Origin: Legionella genomosp. 1 | GTDB lineage: Bacteria; Pseudomonadota; Gammaproteobacteria; Legionellales; Legionellaceae | NCBI GenBank assembly: GCA_945889365.1 | Contig: CAMDBQ010000001.1 | Location: 1 to 29,606 of the forward strand | Reading direction: 5' to 3' | Length of the DNA: 29,606 bases | In this document: positions 3,104-29,606 of the stretch, in pieces | Layout of the letters: each line of letters begins with the position of its first letter | How positions within the stretch are numbered: position 1 is the stretch's first letter | Translations under genes and position numbers: made by a program | The notes under the pieces: model-generated | Told to the model about the DNA's origin: nothing | Databases searched by the model: none | Seen by the model: only the letters and a program-made list of their open reading frames with translations

Positions 3104-3190
3104 GCCCAGGTGGCGAAACAGGTAGACGCAAGGGATTTAAAATCCCTCGGTGGTAACACCATGCCGGTTCGATTCCGGCCCTGGGCACCA
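3104..3190 (+). tRNA. tRNA-Leu (TAA)
   Basis: AGGGA-TTTAAAA-TCCCT anticodon arm, long variable arm, GGTTCGATTCC T-arm, CCA end; 87 nt. Confidence 0.97.
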
Positions 3191-3200
3191 TGTACAGATT

Positions 3201-3350
3201 TTGTAAGGTTTCGTAAGTGGTCGTAATGATGCGTAACTACTTGATTATTAAATAAATAAATAGCATTGACTTCTTGTTCTCAAATCGTTCTCAACTATTC
3301 GTAATTTTTCGCATGTAACCGCGAGAACTTTGGGTAAGATTTTGGGTAAG
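3201..3350. repeat. Phased short direct repeats, possibly the end of an integrative element
   Basis: GTAA at 3203, 3213, 3223 and 3233 (10-bp period); TTTGGGTAAG at 3329 and 3341; AT-rich spacer between the two clusters. Confidence 0.55.
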
Positions 3351-6953: not shown

Positions 6954-8681
6954 GTGAATATAAAACAACGCACATTACCCACAACGCTGCCATCATTGCC
7001 TACATTCCCACCCATTCTACAGAGAATTTACGCGGCAAGAGATGTGGTTGATGAGGCGCAACTGGACAAGCGATTGCAAGCCTTATTGCCGTTTAATACG
7101 CTGACGGATATTGATAAAGCCTGTGCTCGCCTGGAAACAGCACTGCGTCAGCAGCAACGAATTTTAATTGTTGGCGATTTTGATGCGGATGGTGCGACCT
7201 CCAGTGCTTTAGCGATTGCAGCACTTCGTATCATGGGGGCGTTGCATGTTAATTTTCTGGTGCCGAATCGATTTACGTTTGGTTATGGTTTAACTCCTGG
7301 CATCATCGGTGTAGCAAAAGAATGGCAACCGCACTTGATCATTACGGTTGATAACGGCATTGCTAGTATTGAAGGCGTTGATGCGGCTAATGGTGCGGGT
7401 ATTGATGTATTGATTACCGATCACCATTTGCCAGCTGAAAAATTACCCAATGCCTGTGCTATTGTTAATCCAAATCAGGTTGGCGATCAATTCCCAAGTA
7501 AAGCCATCGCAGGCGTCGGTGTTATTTTCTATGTCATGTTAGCGCTGCGTCGTCGTTTGGTTGATTGCGGTTGGTTTAAATCTGCCAACATACCAGAGCC
7601 GAATATGGCACAGTTTCTTGATTTGGTCGCATTAGGAACCGTCGCTGACGTGGTGCCATTAGATAAGAATAATCGCATCTTGATTCATCAGGGAATGGAG
7701 CGCATTCGGCAAGGGCTATGCCGTCCTGGCATTCAAGGATTGATTAAAGTAGCTGGAAAACGTGCTGAAAAATTACGAGAAAGTGATTTGGGTTTTTCTA
7801 TCGCACCTCGATTGAATGCAGCTGGTCGATTGGATGATATGTCATTAGGCATAGAATGCTTATTAAGCGACAACGTAGAGAAAGCCTGCATGCTGGCCAG
7901 TCAGCTCGATGAGTTAAATCTTGAGCGGCGCCGAATTGAAACTGAAATGAAAGATCAGGCTATGCTGGCTTTAAATAAACTGGCATTAAATTCTGAGCAA
8001 GCTCTGCCAGTCGCCTTGTGTTTATTTGACCAGTCTTGGCATCAAGGTGTGATTGGGATTCTCGCGGGTCGTTTGAAAGAGCGTTATCATCGCCCGGTTA
8101 TTGCCTTTGCTGCCGGCAGTGAAACCGAGTTAAAGGGATCAGCGCGTTCAATACCCGGTTTGAATATCCGTGATGTGTTGGCTGATATTGATAAAAATAA
8201 CCCAGGCTTAATTACAAAATTTGGCGGACATGCCATGGCTGCTGGTTTGACATTGCATCAACAAGCGTTCCCGGTGTTCAAGGAAGCATTGATTAATGAA
8301 GTGGGTAAACATATTGATCTATCTGAATGTAAAGGCGAGTTATTAAGCGATGGCCCTCTGCAAGGGGCTGAGTTGAGTTTGGATTTGGCGCATGCTTTGC
8401 AAAGTGCCGGTCCGTGGGGACAACAATTTCCAGAGCCGCTTTTTGATAACGAATTCGAAATATTGGATCAACGCATTGTAGGGCAAAATCATTTGAAATT
8501 AACATTGGTGCGGGAGTTTGGTGGTCAACCGATTGATGCGATTGCATTTAATATTGATTTAAAACAATGGCCAAATCACCGAGCACGTTATTTGTATGCG
8601 GCGTATAGGCTGGACATAAACGAGTATAATGGACGGACTAAATTGCAGTTGATTGTTGCGTCGATGCAGGCGAAGGTGTAA
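6954..8681 (+). CDS. recJ: ssDNA-specific exonuclease RecJ
   Basis: GDFDADGATS, ITVDNGI, TDHH (DHH motif), LGTVADVV, FGGHAMAAG; GTG start. Confidence 0.97.
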   Translation: MNIKQRTLPTTLPSLPTFPPILQRIYAARDVVDEAQLDKRLQALLPFNTLTDIDKACARLETALRQQQRILIVGDFDADGATSSALAIAALRIMGALHVNFLVPNRFTFGYGLTPGIIGVAKEWQPHLIITVDNGIASIEGVDAANGAGIDVLITDHHLPAEKLPNACAIVNPNQVGDQFPSKAIAGVGVIFYVMLALRRRLVDCGWFKSANIPEPNMAQFLDLVALGTVADVVPLDKNNRILIHQGMERIRQGLCRPGIQGLIKVAGKRAEKLRESDLGFSIAPRLNAAGRLDDMSLGIECLLSDNVEKACMLASQLDELNLERRRIETEMKDQAMLALNKLALNSEQALPVALCLFDQSWHQGVIGILAGRLKERYHRPVIAFAAGSETELKGSARSIPGLNIRDVLADIDKNNPGLITKFGGHAMAAGLTLHQQAFPVFKEALINEVGKHIDLSECKGELLSDGPLQGAELSLDLAHALQSAGPWGQQFPEPLFDNEFEILDQRIVGQNHLKLTLVREFGGQPIDAIAFNIDLKQWPNHRARYLYAAYRLDINEYNGRTKLQLIVASMQAKV

Positions 8682-18153: not shown

Positions 18154-18399
18154 GTGTCGGGCGTTCCTTGTACAAGCGACAAAGCATTGCAGCGAAGCGT
18201 GTCAGAAGTTTTATCGGCCATATATGAGCAAGACTTTCTGGCATGTTCGTTTGGGGGTAGGCCAAAACTCAGTGCGCATCATGCACTTTCAACCCTGAAT
18301 GAAATCATCTCGGGCAAGAAGGTAGGATGGGTATATGAGGCCGACCTGAAGAATTTCTTTGGTAGTTTAGATCACGGATGGTTACTACAATGCAAGTAA
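18154..18399 (+). pseudogene. Group II intron reverse transcriptase fragment (RT2-RT3 region)
   Basis: GVPCTSDKALQRSVSEVLSAIYEQDFLACSFGGRP..SAHHAL...WVYEADLKNFFGSLDHGWL; no YADD region and no true N-terminus. Confidence 0.88.
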
Positions 18400-18712
18400 T
18401 GACATACCCGGGAACCTGATAACAAAATACGCTTTTAGATGGGAAATAGAAACGCTGTTTTCCTGCTTGAAAGGCCGCGGTTTTAATTTTGAGGACACTC
18501 ATATTATTGATCGCGATCGTATTAAAAAGCTGGTCGTTTTACTGGCGGTGGCTTTCTGTTGGGCGCATAAAACAGGGGAAGGGCGGCATGAGCAACGCGC
18601 TATTAAGATAAAGAAACTTGGACGACCAGAGGTCAGTTTGTTTCAATATGGACTGGATTATCTTGTTGATGCCCTTGCAAATCTGTCATATAAATACGAA
18701 TCTTTACCATGA
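18392..18712 (+). mobile_element. IS4-family transposase C-terminal fragment
   Basis: Extending the 18467 ORF upstream in frame gives KYAFRWEIETLFSCLKGRGFNFEDTH...AFCWAHKTGE...SLFQYGLDYL (YxxRWxIE signature). Confidence 0.8.
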
Positions 18713-26393: not shown

Positions 26394-27578
26394 ATGACAA
26401 ACATATACATAGTAGACGTCCTACGCACACCCGTAGGCAAAGCCCCGCGCGGCGTATTCAAACATACGTTACCTGACGATCTGCTGGCACACACAATCAA
26501 AGCCCTGACAGCCCGTCAAGCCACCGTAGATTGGGAAGCCATCGGTGATGTCGTCATCGGCTGCGCCATGCCAGAAGCAGAGCAGGGAATGAATGTCGCA
26601 CGCATCGCGTCACTATTAGCCGATCTACCGCAATCCGTACCCGCCATGACGATCAATCGCTTTTGTTCTTCTGGCGTGCAAAGCATTGCCACAGCGGCAG
26701 CAAGCATCAGGCAAGGTGACATGTCACTGGCATTGGCCGGTGGGGTGGAAAGCATGTCGATGGTGCCGTTAGGTGGCAATAAATACACTGTAAACCCGGC
26801 TATTTTTAACAACGAACACATTGCAATCGCATATGGCATGGGCATCACTGCTGAAAAAGTAGCCCAGCGCTGGCAGGTTACTCGTGAACAACAAGACGAA
26901 TTCGCCGCAGAAAGCCACCGACGCGCCGTGGCTGCACAACAACGTGGTGATTTTCAAGCTGAAATCACACCTGTCACCATTATGGATCGACATGCGAATT
27001 TAGCTACATCAGAAGTCACCAGCAAACCGCGAATAATCATGAATGACGAAGGCCCTCGAGCCGAGACATCGTATGAAGCCATCGCACGGTTAAAGCCAGT
27101 ATTTGCAGCGAAAGGCACCGTAACAGCAGGCAATAGTTCACAAACCAGCGATGGGGCAGGGATTGCATTACTAGCCAGTGAAGCCGCATTAAAGGAATAT
27201 AACTTACAACCCATGGGTCGATTGCTCAGTTTCGCTGTTGCAGGCGCTCCCCCTGAAATCATGGGAATAGGCCCCATTCATGCTATTCCTCTGGCACTGA
27301 AACGCGCAGGCATAACCCTTGATCAACTGGATTGGATTGAGCTCAACGAAGCATTTGCCGCACAAGCGCTAGCGGTGATTAAAGAGCTTGATTTACCACG
27401 AGACAAAGTGAATCCATTAGGGGGTGCCATAGCATTAGGCCATCCGTTAGGCGCTACAGGAACAGTAAGAACCGCTACGTTATTGCATGGCTTGCGTCGA
27501 ACCAACGGTCGTTATGGCATGGTGACCATGTGTATTGGAACGGGAATGGGCGCAGCAGCTATTTTTGAAGCGCTATAG
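26394..27578 (+). CDS. fadA: Acetyl-CoA C-acyltransferase (3-ketoacyl-CoA thiolase)
   Basis: INRFCSSG catalytic Cys, AGNSSQTSDGA, ELNEAFA, GGAIALGHPLGATG, MCIGTGMG. Confidence 0.95.
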   Translation: MTNIYIVDVLRTPVGKAPRGVFKHTLPDDLLAHTIKALTARQATVDWEAIGDVVIGCAMPEAEQGMNVARIASLLADLPQSVPAMTINRFCSSGVQSIATAAASIRQGDMSLALAGGVESMSMVPLGGNKYTVNPAIFNNEHIAIAYGMGITAEKVAQRWQVTREQQDEFAAESHRRAVAAQQRGDFQAEITPVTIMDRHANLATSEVTSKPRIIMNDEGPRAETSYEAIARLKPVFAAKGTVTAGNSSQTSDGAGIALLASEAALKEYNLQPMGRLLSFAVAGAPPEIMGIGPIHAIPLALKRAGITLDQLDWIELNEAFAAQALAVIKELDLPRDKVNPLGGAIALGHPLGATGTVRTATLLHGLRRTNGRYGMVTMCIGTGMGAAAIFEAL

Positions 27579-27582
27579 AAAA

Positions 27583-27633
27583 AATCAACTGGTATGTATC
27601 CCGGTAAACCGGTAACTCCGTATAAAGCACCAT
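27583..27633 (-). pseudogene. 5' stub of an Avd-like / four-helix-bundle gene (DGR accessory protein)
   Basis: AGGA 7 nt upstream of ATG 27633; reads MVLYTELPVYRDTYQLI, then runs antisense into the fadA 3' end and stops at 27559. Matches the LY.ELPVY/F.D.Y.L N-terminus of Avd-like proteins as I recall them. Confidence 0.7.
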
Positions 27634-27657
27634 CTGAACATCCTAAAAAAAACTGCG

Positions 27658-27672
27658 GCCCGCTGCGCGGGC
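27658..27672 (-). other. GCA-triloop hairpin downstream of the putative variable region (DGR cis-element candidate; may also act as a terminator)
   Basis: Minus strand GCCCGC-GCA-GCGGGC, 44 nt after the target stop codon, followed after 5 nt by T8. Confidence 0.6.
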
Positions 27673-27716
27673 GCTATTTGTGTCAACAACAAGGTCAACT
27701 GAAAAGGGGTGAAGGG

Positions 27717-27872
27717 CTAAAGGGTTAAAGCCCGGGAACAACGGACACCAAGCGTGAGGAACTTACCGAGGCTGCTCTGACCGCTGCCGCCGCCTGACGC
27801 GAAGACCTGGAGCCACGCGGTGCCAGTCGGATCACCTGAGTTCTCGGTAGAGCTCCAGTAGCCGCCAGCCAA
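27717..27872 (-). other. Putative DGR variable region (VR)
   Basis: 23 of the last 50 codons end in C and only 3 end in A. NNC/NNT codons sit where the canonical template has AAC/AAT (GGC ACC, CTC, GTC, AGC AGC CTC GGT, TTC CTC). Confidence 0.75.
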
Positions 27873-29147
27873 GCATGAAGTGCCTGTGCAAGAGGTTAAC
27901 AACAGCGAAGGCAGGTTGGTCACCATGTTAGGCGTACCCGATACGCAACCAGAACCATTGGCTGCCGGTCCCATCTCACATATGGCTGGTAAATACCAGT
28001 CTGTAAAACCCCCGATGCTGGCCTTGCAGAGGCCTGATGCGTATTGTGTTAATGGGGTTGGTGCGGCTCCTCCCGATGCTCTATTCGCGTTGTAATACGT
28101 GACGATGTTGGTGGTGTCACATGAGCCATCAGTTCTACCATTGCAGGCAGATTGGCCTGTTATCTGCCCTGAACTGGGGATAGGACTTGCGCTCGTGGAT
28201 GTTTCAGAAATCCCGAAAATGGCTATATAACTGACGGTGGTACCCGAACCGTCAGAACTCCATATAATCCCATTCGGGTATGCGGCTGCCTGGTCTGTCA
28301 CTGCGGCCACTTTTCCGCCGATACTGCCCGTTATGGGCGTCGTATCATCAATCGAGTATATAAATCCTGATTGATACACGCTGGCCAATGCCACTATGTT
28401 TAGCGTGGGCGTTAGGGCGTTGGTATTTGCCCCCTGAACACTGAGGGTAATCGGCGTTGGGTTGGTGTTATAGGCTGCGGCACTCGCGGTAGCACCAGGT
28501 GTGATGGTTAATACGCACGTGCCTGCAGGTGCTATGTTTCCACAGCTGGCTGGCGCTATGGTCGTGCCCGCTGGCAATGCGGGGGATGGGCTGTACGTCA
28601 CGCTGCTTGCAGTTGATGTACCTGTGTTGGTGAAGGTGATTGTTCTTGGTACGCCGCTTGTTTTAAGTGCCAGTGTAGTGACGCTTGCGCTAATCGTTGT
28701 AGACAGGCTGACGGGAGGGGTCACCATAATACTTAAGCTATTGCTTTGACTGGGCTGATAACACTGTAACGGACTCGGATTGCCATCGGGCCCTTGCTGA
28801 CAAACTTTCGGGCCGGCATTAATATCTGCGTTTAATGCACTGCCTGTAATCAACAATGTTAGAGTGCAAGACGGATTACCGCCTGACAAGGTAAACGGAT
28901 TAGGGCAGTTCCCTGCCGTAGTGGTTTGTGTGATGCCGGTTATGGGCACCATCATCAGCGTATGGGGTGCTGGCGACTGATTGGTGACTCGATATTGCAC
29001 GGTGGCTGTCGAATTGGAGGGTACGGATAGCGTGGTGGGTGTTAGAGGTGTAAATGTCCATACCGGACTGCCTGCTTGAGAGGTTGTAGCCATGGTCAGG
29101 GCGGCTGCACCCAGTAACAAAGGCATCATGCGTTTATTGTTCATCAT
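27717..29147 (-). CDS. Secreted protein with Ig-like stalk and C-terminal DUF1566/Lcl (C-type lectin fold) domain; probable DGR target
   Basis: Sec-type signal peptide ending SQA; Thr/Pro/Cys-rich beta domains; GFIYSIDD..GGKVAA, DWYLPAICEM, YWSSTE...AW...F...GVRCSRAL C-terminal motif. Confidence 0.85.
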   Translation of the reverse strand: MMNNKRMMPLLLGAAALTMATTSQAGSPVWTFTPLTPTTLSVPSNSTATVQYRVTNQSPAPHTLMMVPITGITQTTTAGNCPNPFTLSGGNPSCTLTLLITGSALNADINAGPKVCQQGPDGNPSPLQCYQPSQSNSLSIMVTPPVSLSTTISASVTTLALKTSGVPRTITFTNTGTSTASSVTYSPSPALPAGTTIAPASCGNIAPAGTCVLTITPGATASAAAYNTNPTPITLSVQGANTNALTPTLNIVALASVYQSGFIYSIDDTTPITGSIGGKVAAVTDQAAAYPNGIIWSSDGSGTTVSYIAIFGISETSTSASPIPSSGQITGQSACNGRTDGSCDTTNIVTYYNANRASGGAAPTPLTQYASGLCKASIGGFTDWYLPAICEMGPAANGSGCVSGTPNMVTNLPSLLLTSCTGTSCLAGGYWSSTENSGDPTGTAWLQVFASGGGSGQSSLGKFLTLGVRCSRALTL

Positions 29148-29157
29148 TAGAGAGTCC

Positions 29158-29606
29158 TTACGAGAGATAACTTAAGCTAAATTGAAGTCCATTGGTGTAC
29201 AGGTGACTCAACGACAACCCTTGCCCCATGGTTTGACCTGATGCGCGCGCCAGCTGGCTTTGACCCCAGTCCGCAAACTCATACCCCATACCGGCCTGCC
29301 AATGCTGGTTTATCGCGCGCTGCACGCCAATACCTACGGTATACGTAAAGGCCGTTGTGGTGTTGGATTGGAAATTAGGCGTGGGTGTTGCTTGAAAAAG
29401 CGTTGGTGTTGACGTGAAATGACGGGCTTGGTTAAAACCCACGCCTAAACTCCCGCTGACATAAGGTTTAAATGCATGACCTAAGTCTTTAATGAGTTTT
29501 CCTTTCACTGCAATGTGGGTGTGCTGGACGTTGTAGGCGTAATTGAAGTTATTAAACTGCGGCAATGCATCATCCCAGATACTGCCTGACAGATTGGCAT
29601 TGCTGG
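29158..29606 (-). CDS. Outer-membrane beta-barrel protein, C-terminal part (gene starts beyond the right edge)
   Basis: Frame is open to the window end (…SNANLSGSIWDDALPQFNNF…). Alternating beta-strands PYVSGSLGVGFN, FTYTVGIGVQ, WQAGMGYEFADWG, GLQFSLSY. Stop is 10 bp before the next ATG, with the AAGGA RBS overlapping the stop. Confidence 0.8.
   Translation of the reverse strand, partial: SNANLSGSIWDDALPQFNNFNYAYNVQHTHIAVKGKLIKDLGHAFKPYVSGSLGVGFNQARHFTSTPTLFQATPTPNFQSNTTTAFTYTVGIGVQRAINQHWQAGMGYEFADWGQSQLARASGQTMGQGLSLSHLYTNGLQFSLSYLS

Follow-up and report, generated by a model that had tools for sequence, protein, structure and literature searches.

A truncated avd gene abutting fadA in Legionella genomosp. 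1: a probable fossil of a DGR

Introduction

The DGR of Legionella pneumophila is laid out as ldtA target, avd, TR and RT (architecture B) with a CLec2/DUF1566-class VR, and the Legionella element requires a hairpin for efficient retrohoming (PMC5758913). In cyanobacteria, DGR cassettes in a degraded state have been described, as have paralogues of variable proteins with no RT close by, and the authors suggested that the diversification components are removed after a variant has been selected (PMC7517822). Near the end of a contig of Legionella genomosp. 1 (CAMDBQ010000001.1, assembly GCA_945889365.1) a short minus-strand frame with an Avd-like beginning runs into the 3' end of fadA, and an earlier note, made from the letters alone, had read it as an avd stub at a deletion breakpoint. 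The question raised by this locus is whether the frame descends from avd and, if so, what became of the rest of the cassette. The window is the whole stretch of DNA that was analysed (29,606 nt, positions 1 to 29,606 of the contig). Its own assembly is a MAG of 1.49 Mb in 207 contigs, 85% complete.

Organization of the locus

The last 3.2 kb of the window hold a thiolase gene on the plus strand and, on the minus strand, a barrel gene, a DUF1566/Lcl_C gene and a GC hairpin. The features are the following:

26394..27578, plus strand: fadA-like acetyl-CoA acyltransferase (thiolase), intact, 394 aa (Thiolase_N 2.4e-69, Thiolase_C 2.5e-45)
27559..27633, minus strand: present 24-codon ORF, whose residues 18-24 (FSIALQK) are junction plus antisense fadA, not avd
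27579..27580, no strand: junction, two A's separating the fadA side from the DGR-derived one, placed by alignment and contigs
27581..27633, minus strand: avd remnant, ATG plus codons 2-17 plus two bases of codon 18 (MVLYTELPVYRDTYQLI), 17/17 aa identical to locus L012
27644-27641, minus strand: AGGA, the RBS of what was once avd, lying 7 nt ahead of the ATG and kept in most of nine aligned relatives
27645..27675, minus strand: GC-rich hairpin plus T8 (core GCCCGC-GCA-GCGGGC at 27672-27658, T8 at 27652-27645)
27717..29147, minus strand: intact secreted DUF1566/Lcl_C-type protein, 476 aa, former DGR target (Lcl_C 24.1 bits, cut-off 34.9)
29158..29606, minus strand: outer-membrane beta-barrel gene, truncated at its 5' side where the contig stops (OMP_b-brl 25.6 bits, under the cut-off)

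The minus-strand ORF opens with the ATG at 27633-27631, is translated as MVLYTELPVYRDTYQLIFSIALQK* and stops at codon 25. Its FSIALQK tail has two sources: the junction supplies codon 18 together with base 1 of codon 19, and codons 19-24 are antisense to the 3' end of fadA. The earlier note had announced an AGGA RBS with an ATG at 27633, a total length of 24 aa and antisense fadA from about 27582; all of this was borne out, the avd homology ending at 27581. Short ORFs are common in this DNA (the last 7.6 kb of the window contain 111 with 20 aa or more).

The hairpin is terminator-like on both strands (DNA fold -9.3 kcal/mol, z -1.98) and, together with the T8, has the form of an intrinsic terminator of the target gene. 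It is the hairpin that DGRs carry downstream of the VR: a GC-rich inverted repeat lies downstream of the VR/IMH, with its position and sequence kept before avd in intact cassettes. Cassettes from several phyla carry the motif CCCGCG-N-AGCGGG 14-27 nt ahead of the start codon of avd (L066, L079, L083, L089 and L101).

The target protein, with its VR at roughly 27720-27881, showed 84.5% amino acid identity to the target of L012 (contig 100 of genome G014, G014:C100). Its Lcl_C score lies under the cut-off, and targets of verified cassettes are equally weak. The barrel gene was 59-72% identical in amino acids to the gene preceding the target in L025/L048, L105, L026 and L050.

Homology of the stub to avd

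When the DNA from 27300 to 27760 was searched against 40 relatives, the query split in two. Up to 27578, the fadA portion had a single matching locus in each genome. From 27581 to 27756 the matches lay at other loci, frequently more than one to a genome, and of the longest ones the majority started at 27581. The best match was G014:C100 (L012), located downstream of an orthologous target, with 94% DNA identity over 176 nt (27581-27756). At that locus the same ATG opens MVLYTELPVYRDTYQLILSIFEVIKEFTKEYKYSLGQDMKRDALRLMRSIYRAN..., in a frame running into an adjoining transposase gene, and the first 17 residues of the stub, MVLYTELPVYRDTYQLI, were identical (17/17) to the N-terminus of this Avd-like ORF. 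The sequence was also compared with intact 113-aa proteins at L023, L024 and L025 (G014:C7, G014:C116 and G015:C16), which start MALYTELPVYRDTYQLILKVFEYTKDFPKEYKYTLGQDMKRDAL... and share 12-15 of the 17 residues with the stub. Two of these three proteins were scanned, L023 and L025, and they reached 75.6 and 75.1 bits on the Pfam profile PF22296 (bAvd; cut-off 40) and about 66 bits on NCBIfam NF033474, "DGR protein Avd", below its cut-off of 80. The Avd-like identity claimed by the earlier note was thus upheld, and Avd proteins that begin with the stub peptide do exist.

The 24-aa peptide alone gave no profile match in an NCBIfam scan, being too short, and the homology was therefore shown via genomic neighbours instead. 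A tblastn search with an intact Avd against the whole own genome returned the stub site as its sole match (E 2.1e-4). At every locus inspected, the gene behind which the stub sequence sits ended in ...VRCSRA, as DUF1566-type targets do.

By sequence homology the stub belongs with the Avd family; as a protein it falls short of a complete four-helix bundle of ~110-130 aa, with only 17 homologous codons left. It is a gene remnant rather than a member protein of the family, and neither RT binding nor nucleic-acid binding is to be expected of a 17-residue stub. In comparison with the bAvd of Bordetella phage BPP-1 (PF22296; NF033474), the full-length homologues of the stub match (75.6 and 66.2 bits, the latter below the cut-off of 80), whereas the copy in the window comprises no more than 17 N-terminal residues, a portion of helix one, from which a four-helix bundle is impossible.

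Intact cassettes in relatives

At the three intact loci the gene order was an Lcl_C-type target, the hairpin, avd, a spacer holding the TR and an RVT_1 protein of 401-406 aa. VR/TR mismatches at these loci fell on TR adenines in 15/17, 12/13 and 19/20 cases. These loci are canonical DGRs of the Legionella architecture (PMC5758913), and the position of the stub corresponds, as the earlier note had proposed, to the avd slot of such target-avd-TR-RT cassettes.

The locus can be set against the L. pneumophila DGR point by point. Alike are the gene order of the intact relatives, the C-terminal VR of DUF1566/Lcl_C type (a weak match here), the GC hairpin behind the VR and the Avd subfamily, the locus of subsp. 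fraseri ATCC 33156 being 79% identical to the query Avd. In contrast, the window retains just the target, the hairpin and 17 codons of avd, and neither a TR nor an RT was found; its target has a Sec-type signal peptide, as read from the sequence, and not a lipoprotein signal, and is preceded by an OMP-barrel gene.

Another arrangement was seen at L138 (G164:C1:33000-43500), where an insert of ~3.8 kb splits avd into residues 1-70 and 66-113. The VR (3105-3261) and TR (7639-7795) lie 4.4 kb apart at this locus, and adenines account for 20/22 mismatches.

The breakpoint and its bridging contigs

In a DNA alignment of ten sequences (the window and nine relatives) homology extended from the 3' end of the target through the hairpin, the T-run, the RBS, the ATG and 17 codons. 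On the avd side it ended at 27581; base 27580 was mismatched in 9/9 relatives, and beyond it lies antisense fadA. The stop codon of fadA is the TAG at 27576-27578, so that the junction follows at 1-2 nt, in agreement with the "few bases" of the earlier note. On the other side, fadA showed 77-82% DNA identity to same-genus orthologues as far as the stop codon and none past it.

Contigs from metagenomes bridged this junction. One contig of X1, a run that is possibly the source, spanned 27065-28400 with 0 differences; another of X10 (drinking water, another study) spanned 27442-27617, crossing the junction by 37 nt with 0 differences; and a third of X3 (freshwater, another study) spanned 27000-27610 with 1 difference, crossing by a borderline 30 nt. 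In 4/4 runs, contigs of other organisms or loci left the window exactly at 27581, and in the reverse complement of their loose ends avd continued (...FEYTKDFP, ...SIFEV). The junction of fadA with the stub is real; the contigs of X1, X10 and X3 that bridge it (the last one borderline) led to the rejection of an assembly chimera. Another X10 contig from drinking water (record 11) matched 27588-27747 with 2 differences and 27825-28065 with 25 differences, separated by a stretch of the same length across the VR (27747-27825) too diverged to align; it represents a related locus whose VR is different.

Past the fadA stop, the sequences of eight relatives were unrelated to the window and to each other. 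The genomes are compact, and fadA was separated from its neighbours by spacers of 6-108 nt or overlapped by 20 nt. This, along with the constant position of the stub sequence behind a target-like gene at the loci inspected, excluded that the stub is ordinary non-coding DNA found beside fadA. The 3' boundary of fadA was a synteny break in every species compared, and a joint near its stop codon is therefore less remarkable than it first looks. Neither microhomology nor a shared ancestral neighbour was found on the fadA side among the eight relatives, and a DGR adjoining fadA was absent in all the relatives searched, which leaves the pre-deletion state unobserved. As all eight differ right after the stop, the state before the event is beyond reconstruction. 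Accordingly, of the deletion or rearrangement breakpoint put forward by the earlier note, a rearrangement joint at 27579-27580 stood, and deletion specifically is not proven.

The ...LQK* tail was considered as a trace of a former hemY-like gene and rejected: it is dictated, in antisense, by the conserved C-terminus of fadA. In two relatives (L017 1760-2122, genome G008; L020 1725-2912, G006) a convergent gene, presumably hemY-like, overlaps the fadA 3' end by ~20 nt. It encodes 395 aa and ends in ...LQK* in the same antisense frame as the tail of the stub, an ending shared because the fadA C-terminus is conserved.

Missing components and state of the variable region

No second copy of the VR region (27579-27900) was found in the own assembly, and hence no TR there. 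A second avd was likewise missing from it, the stub being the only match, and the search for a DGR-type RT in this 85%-complete assembly gave only partial matches of 31% identity to the cassette RT. Among 149 genomes of the family, the search for a cognate TR yielded nothing above 84%, the best match being another VR, and scoring for A-bias found none among all fetched loci, where the nearest TRs were only ~74% identical. Exact-pattern scans of metagenome contigs (avd 5' 53-mer; degenerate VR pattern) returned no match.

The only PF05635 match of the own genome, on contig 13, was rejected as unrelated to the stub; it is a pseudogene of 23S_rRNA_IVP type with no N-terminal part and no DGR context. 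This four-helix-bundle pseudogene (G000:C13:9287-9511; L002 1160-1812) contains one TAA, is flanked by inverted repeats of ~65 nt (by eye) and sits outside an rRNA context, between a membrane-protein gene and other genes. The own 1.5-Mb genome also held eight unclassified RVT_1 matches (C6, C86, C52, C182, C112, C7 and the window at 18163-18420), mostly short or with stop codons, the one in the window being weak and with two stops. They look like decayed retroelement copies.

The last 61 codons of the target differed from L012 by 13, 14 and 5 mismatches at codon positions 1, 2 and 3, respectively, typical codon pairs in this comparison being GGC/AAC, GTC/AAC and CTC/GAC. When the VR was compared with related TRs, 52-66% of the mismatches lay on TR adenines, as against 21-43% in VR-VR comparisons. 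The VR appears still to carry the mark of DGR writing, although adenine mutagenesis of this particular VR shows only indirectly.

Recurrence of avd stubs in Legionellaceae

A tally made by hand from the search table of 150 Legionellaceae genomes comprised 28 intact avd, 27 N-terminal-only fragments, 4 C-terminal-only fragments and 2 full-length copies with a stop codon, a few of the fragments lying at contig ends, where they may be assembly cuts. About half of the avd loci in the genomes searched were N-terminal stubs. These covered from residues 1-17 to 7-86, with breakpoints from just behind the hairpin up to codon 86. Breaks directly behind the hairpin, without avd codons, occurred at L035, L037 and L041; breaks inside avd left 17 aa in the window, 25, 36 and 42 aa elsewhere and 63 aa beside an IS transposase. 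One copy was broken by a nonsense codon and accompanied by a truncated RT, and at G005:C5 and G011:C16, from two different genera, the stub abuts a gene of 414/415 aa with the same protein ends. The excess of N-terminal over C-terminal fragments is explained by linkage to the selected target gene, whose terminator the hairpin and T-run resemble in shape.

Six cassettes with VR and TR in cis showed A-specific pairing, four with an intact and two with a broken avd; for stub-flanked orphan VRs, no A-specific TR partner was found among the loci fetched per genome. Decayed DGRs with retained targets are widespread in Legionellaceae. That avd stubs are abundant across the family is a useful by-product of the analysis.

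Origin of the stub

The stub is very probably the fossil of a DGR, of which the first 17 avd codons are left while TR and RT were lost. The ancestor would have carried an OMP barrel, a DUF1566/CLec-type target with the VR at its 3' end, a GC hairpin, avd, TR and RT. One rearrangement, most simply a deletion, would have taken avd from codon 18 on, the TR, the RT and anything else up to fadA, and brought what was left to within 1-2 nt of the fadA stop. The survivors would be what selection can hold, namely the target with its terminator-like hairpin on one side and the intact thiolase on the other, with 61 nt of neutral leftover between them (RBS, ATG and 17 avd codons). The event is read most simply as a deletion, which is not demonstrated; an inversion, a transposition or a recombination joint could equally have produced the same structure. 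It is reasonable to suppose, as the earlier note did, that the event stopped at a gene under selection and that its end point reflects selection on fadA.

The stub and the 3' end of the target were 84-94% identical to the locus of another genus (G014:C100), as compared with ~75% for fadA between the same genomes; these identities point to a recent horizontal arrival of the cassette, and hence to a recent truncation. A function of the 24-aa frame is very unlikely, given that 17 of 113 Avd residues remain and that no TR or RT was found; the frame should not be called a gene. Since the stub identifies the DUF1566 protein as one that was formerly a DGR target, what the locus seems to record is a variable surface protein kept and its mutating machinery lost in a Legionellaceae bacterium from a lake, with a VR that is probably frozen and would no longer vary.

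Taken as a whole, the feature is a decayed DGR of an ordinary sort, a pseudogene left over from a known system, with no new mechanism. It resembles the cyanobacterial degraded DGRs (PMC7517822) in that variable-protein genes with remnant features lack a nearby RT. The remnants there consist of residual TR-VR homology or a lone RT, whereas the locus described here is marked by the 5' stub of avd, whose breakpoint beside a housekeeping gene is placed to the base. As markers of decayed DGRs, N-terminal avd stubs are cheap and specific. They could help in counting and dating the loss of DGRs and in tracing orphaned variable proteins missed by RT-centred DGR finders.

Two bolder readings of this decay, which taken together we consider improbable, are that the loss of avd, TR and RT, with target and hairpin kept, is a recurrent, selected "freeze" of a successful surface-protein variant among freshwater Legionellaceae, or that stub-flanked targets still act as acceptors for TR cDNA from mobile DGRs. 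If the former were true, avd stubs would be datable markers of freezing events; if the latter, they would mark dormant acceptor sites.

It is improbable that the target is served in trans, as a duplicated or relocated module (target, IMH, hairpin and a bit of avd) depending on an intact DGR elsewhere in the cell, either among the 15% missing from the assembly or on a mobile element. A DGR may indeed reside on an unassembled mobile element in the same cell: the assembly is incomplete (85%), the sequence of the IMH region and the hairpin are fully kept, DGRs with several targets are known (PMC5758913), and X1, possibly the source metagenome, has a 3340-nt contig on which avd continues past 27581. 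This contig, however, differs at 6/71 bases of the stub region and therefore belongs to another locus or organism, and no TR-like copy, DGR-type RT or other avd occurs in the assembly. Moreover, four genomes have both intact cassettes and stubs, and no A-specific pair of a stub VR with a TR was seen in the fetched loci; the length of the stub, different at each locus, is more in keeping with independent decay than with a fixed edge of a module.

That the retained 5' segment of avd is a functional cis element, or encodes a small leader peptide for target expression or retrohoming, is very improbable. The intact RBS and ATG of the window and the family-wide ratio of 27 N-terminal stubs to 4 C-terminal fragments would agree with such a role, but linkage to the selected target gene accounts simply for that asymmetry, no known cis element of DGRs lies 3' of the hairpin (PMC5758913), and the orphan targets at L035, L037 and L041, with zero avd codons after the hairpin, show that no minimum stub length is conserved.

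A chance ORF in a spacer, or a junction made by the metagenome assembler, is scarcely credible: short ORFs are abundant and depth rises over 27564-27751, the stub region being repeated among organisms in the samples, but an avd locus agrees with this DNA at 17/17 residues and at 94% of 176 nt, the intact Avd finds only the stub site genome-wide, runs from three studies cross the junction with no or hardly any errors (one by the borderline 30 nt), and what is shared at the junction is a short A run at most, not enough for a de Bruijn chimera.

Further features of the cassette family

The Avd subfamily was also found, at 69-79% identity, in MAGs of Bacteroidota, Methylococcaceae, Nitrospirota and Chlamydiae (L066-L103). 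This unusually high conservation across phyla suggests a wide horizontal spread.

An OMP beta-barrel gene lies directly before the DUF1566 target in many Legionellaceae DGR cassettes (L025 393-1172, L026 6595-6999, L048, L050 and L105). The conserved unit thus seems to be barrel-target-avd-TR-RT, an order that hints at the barrel as a possible dedicated display or export partner of the target.
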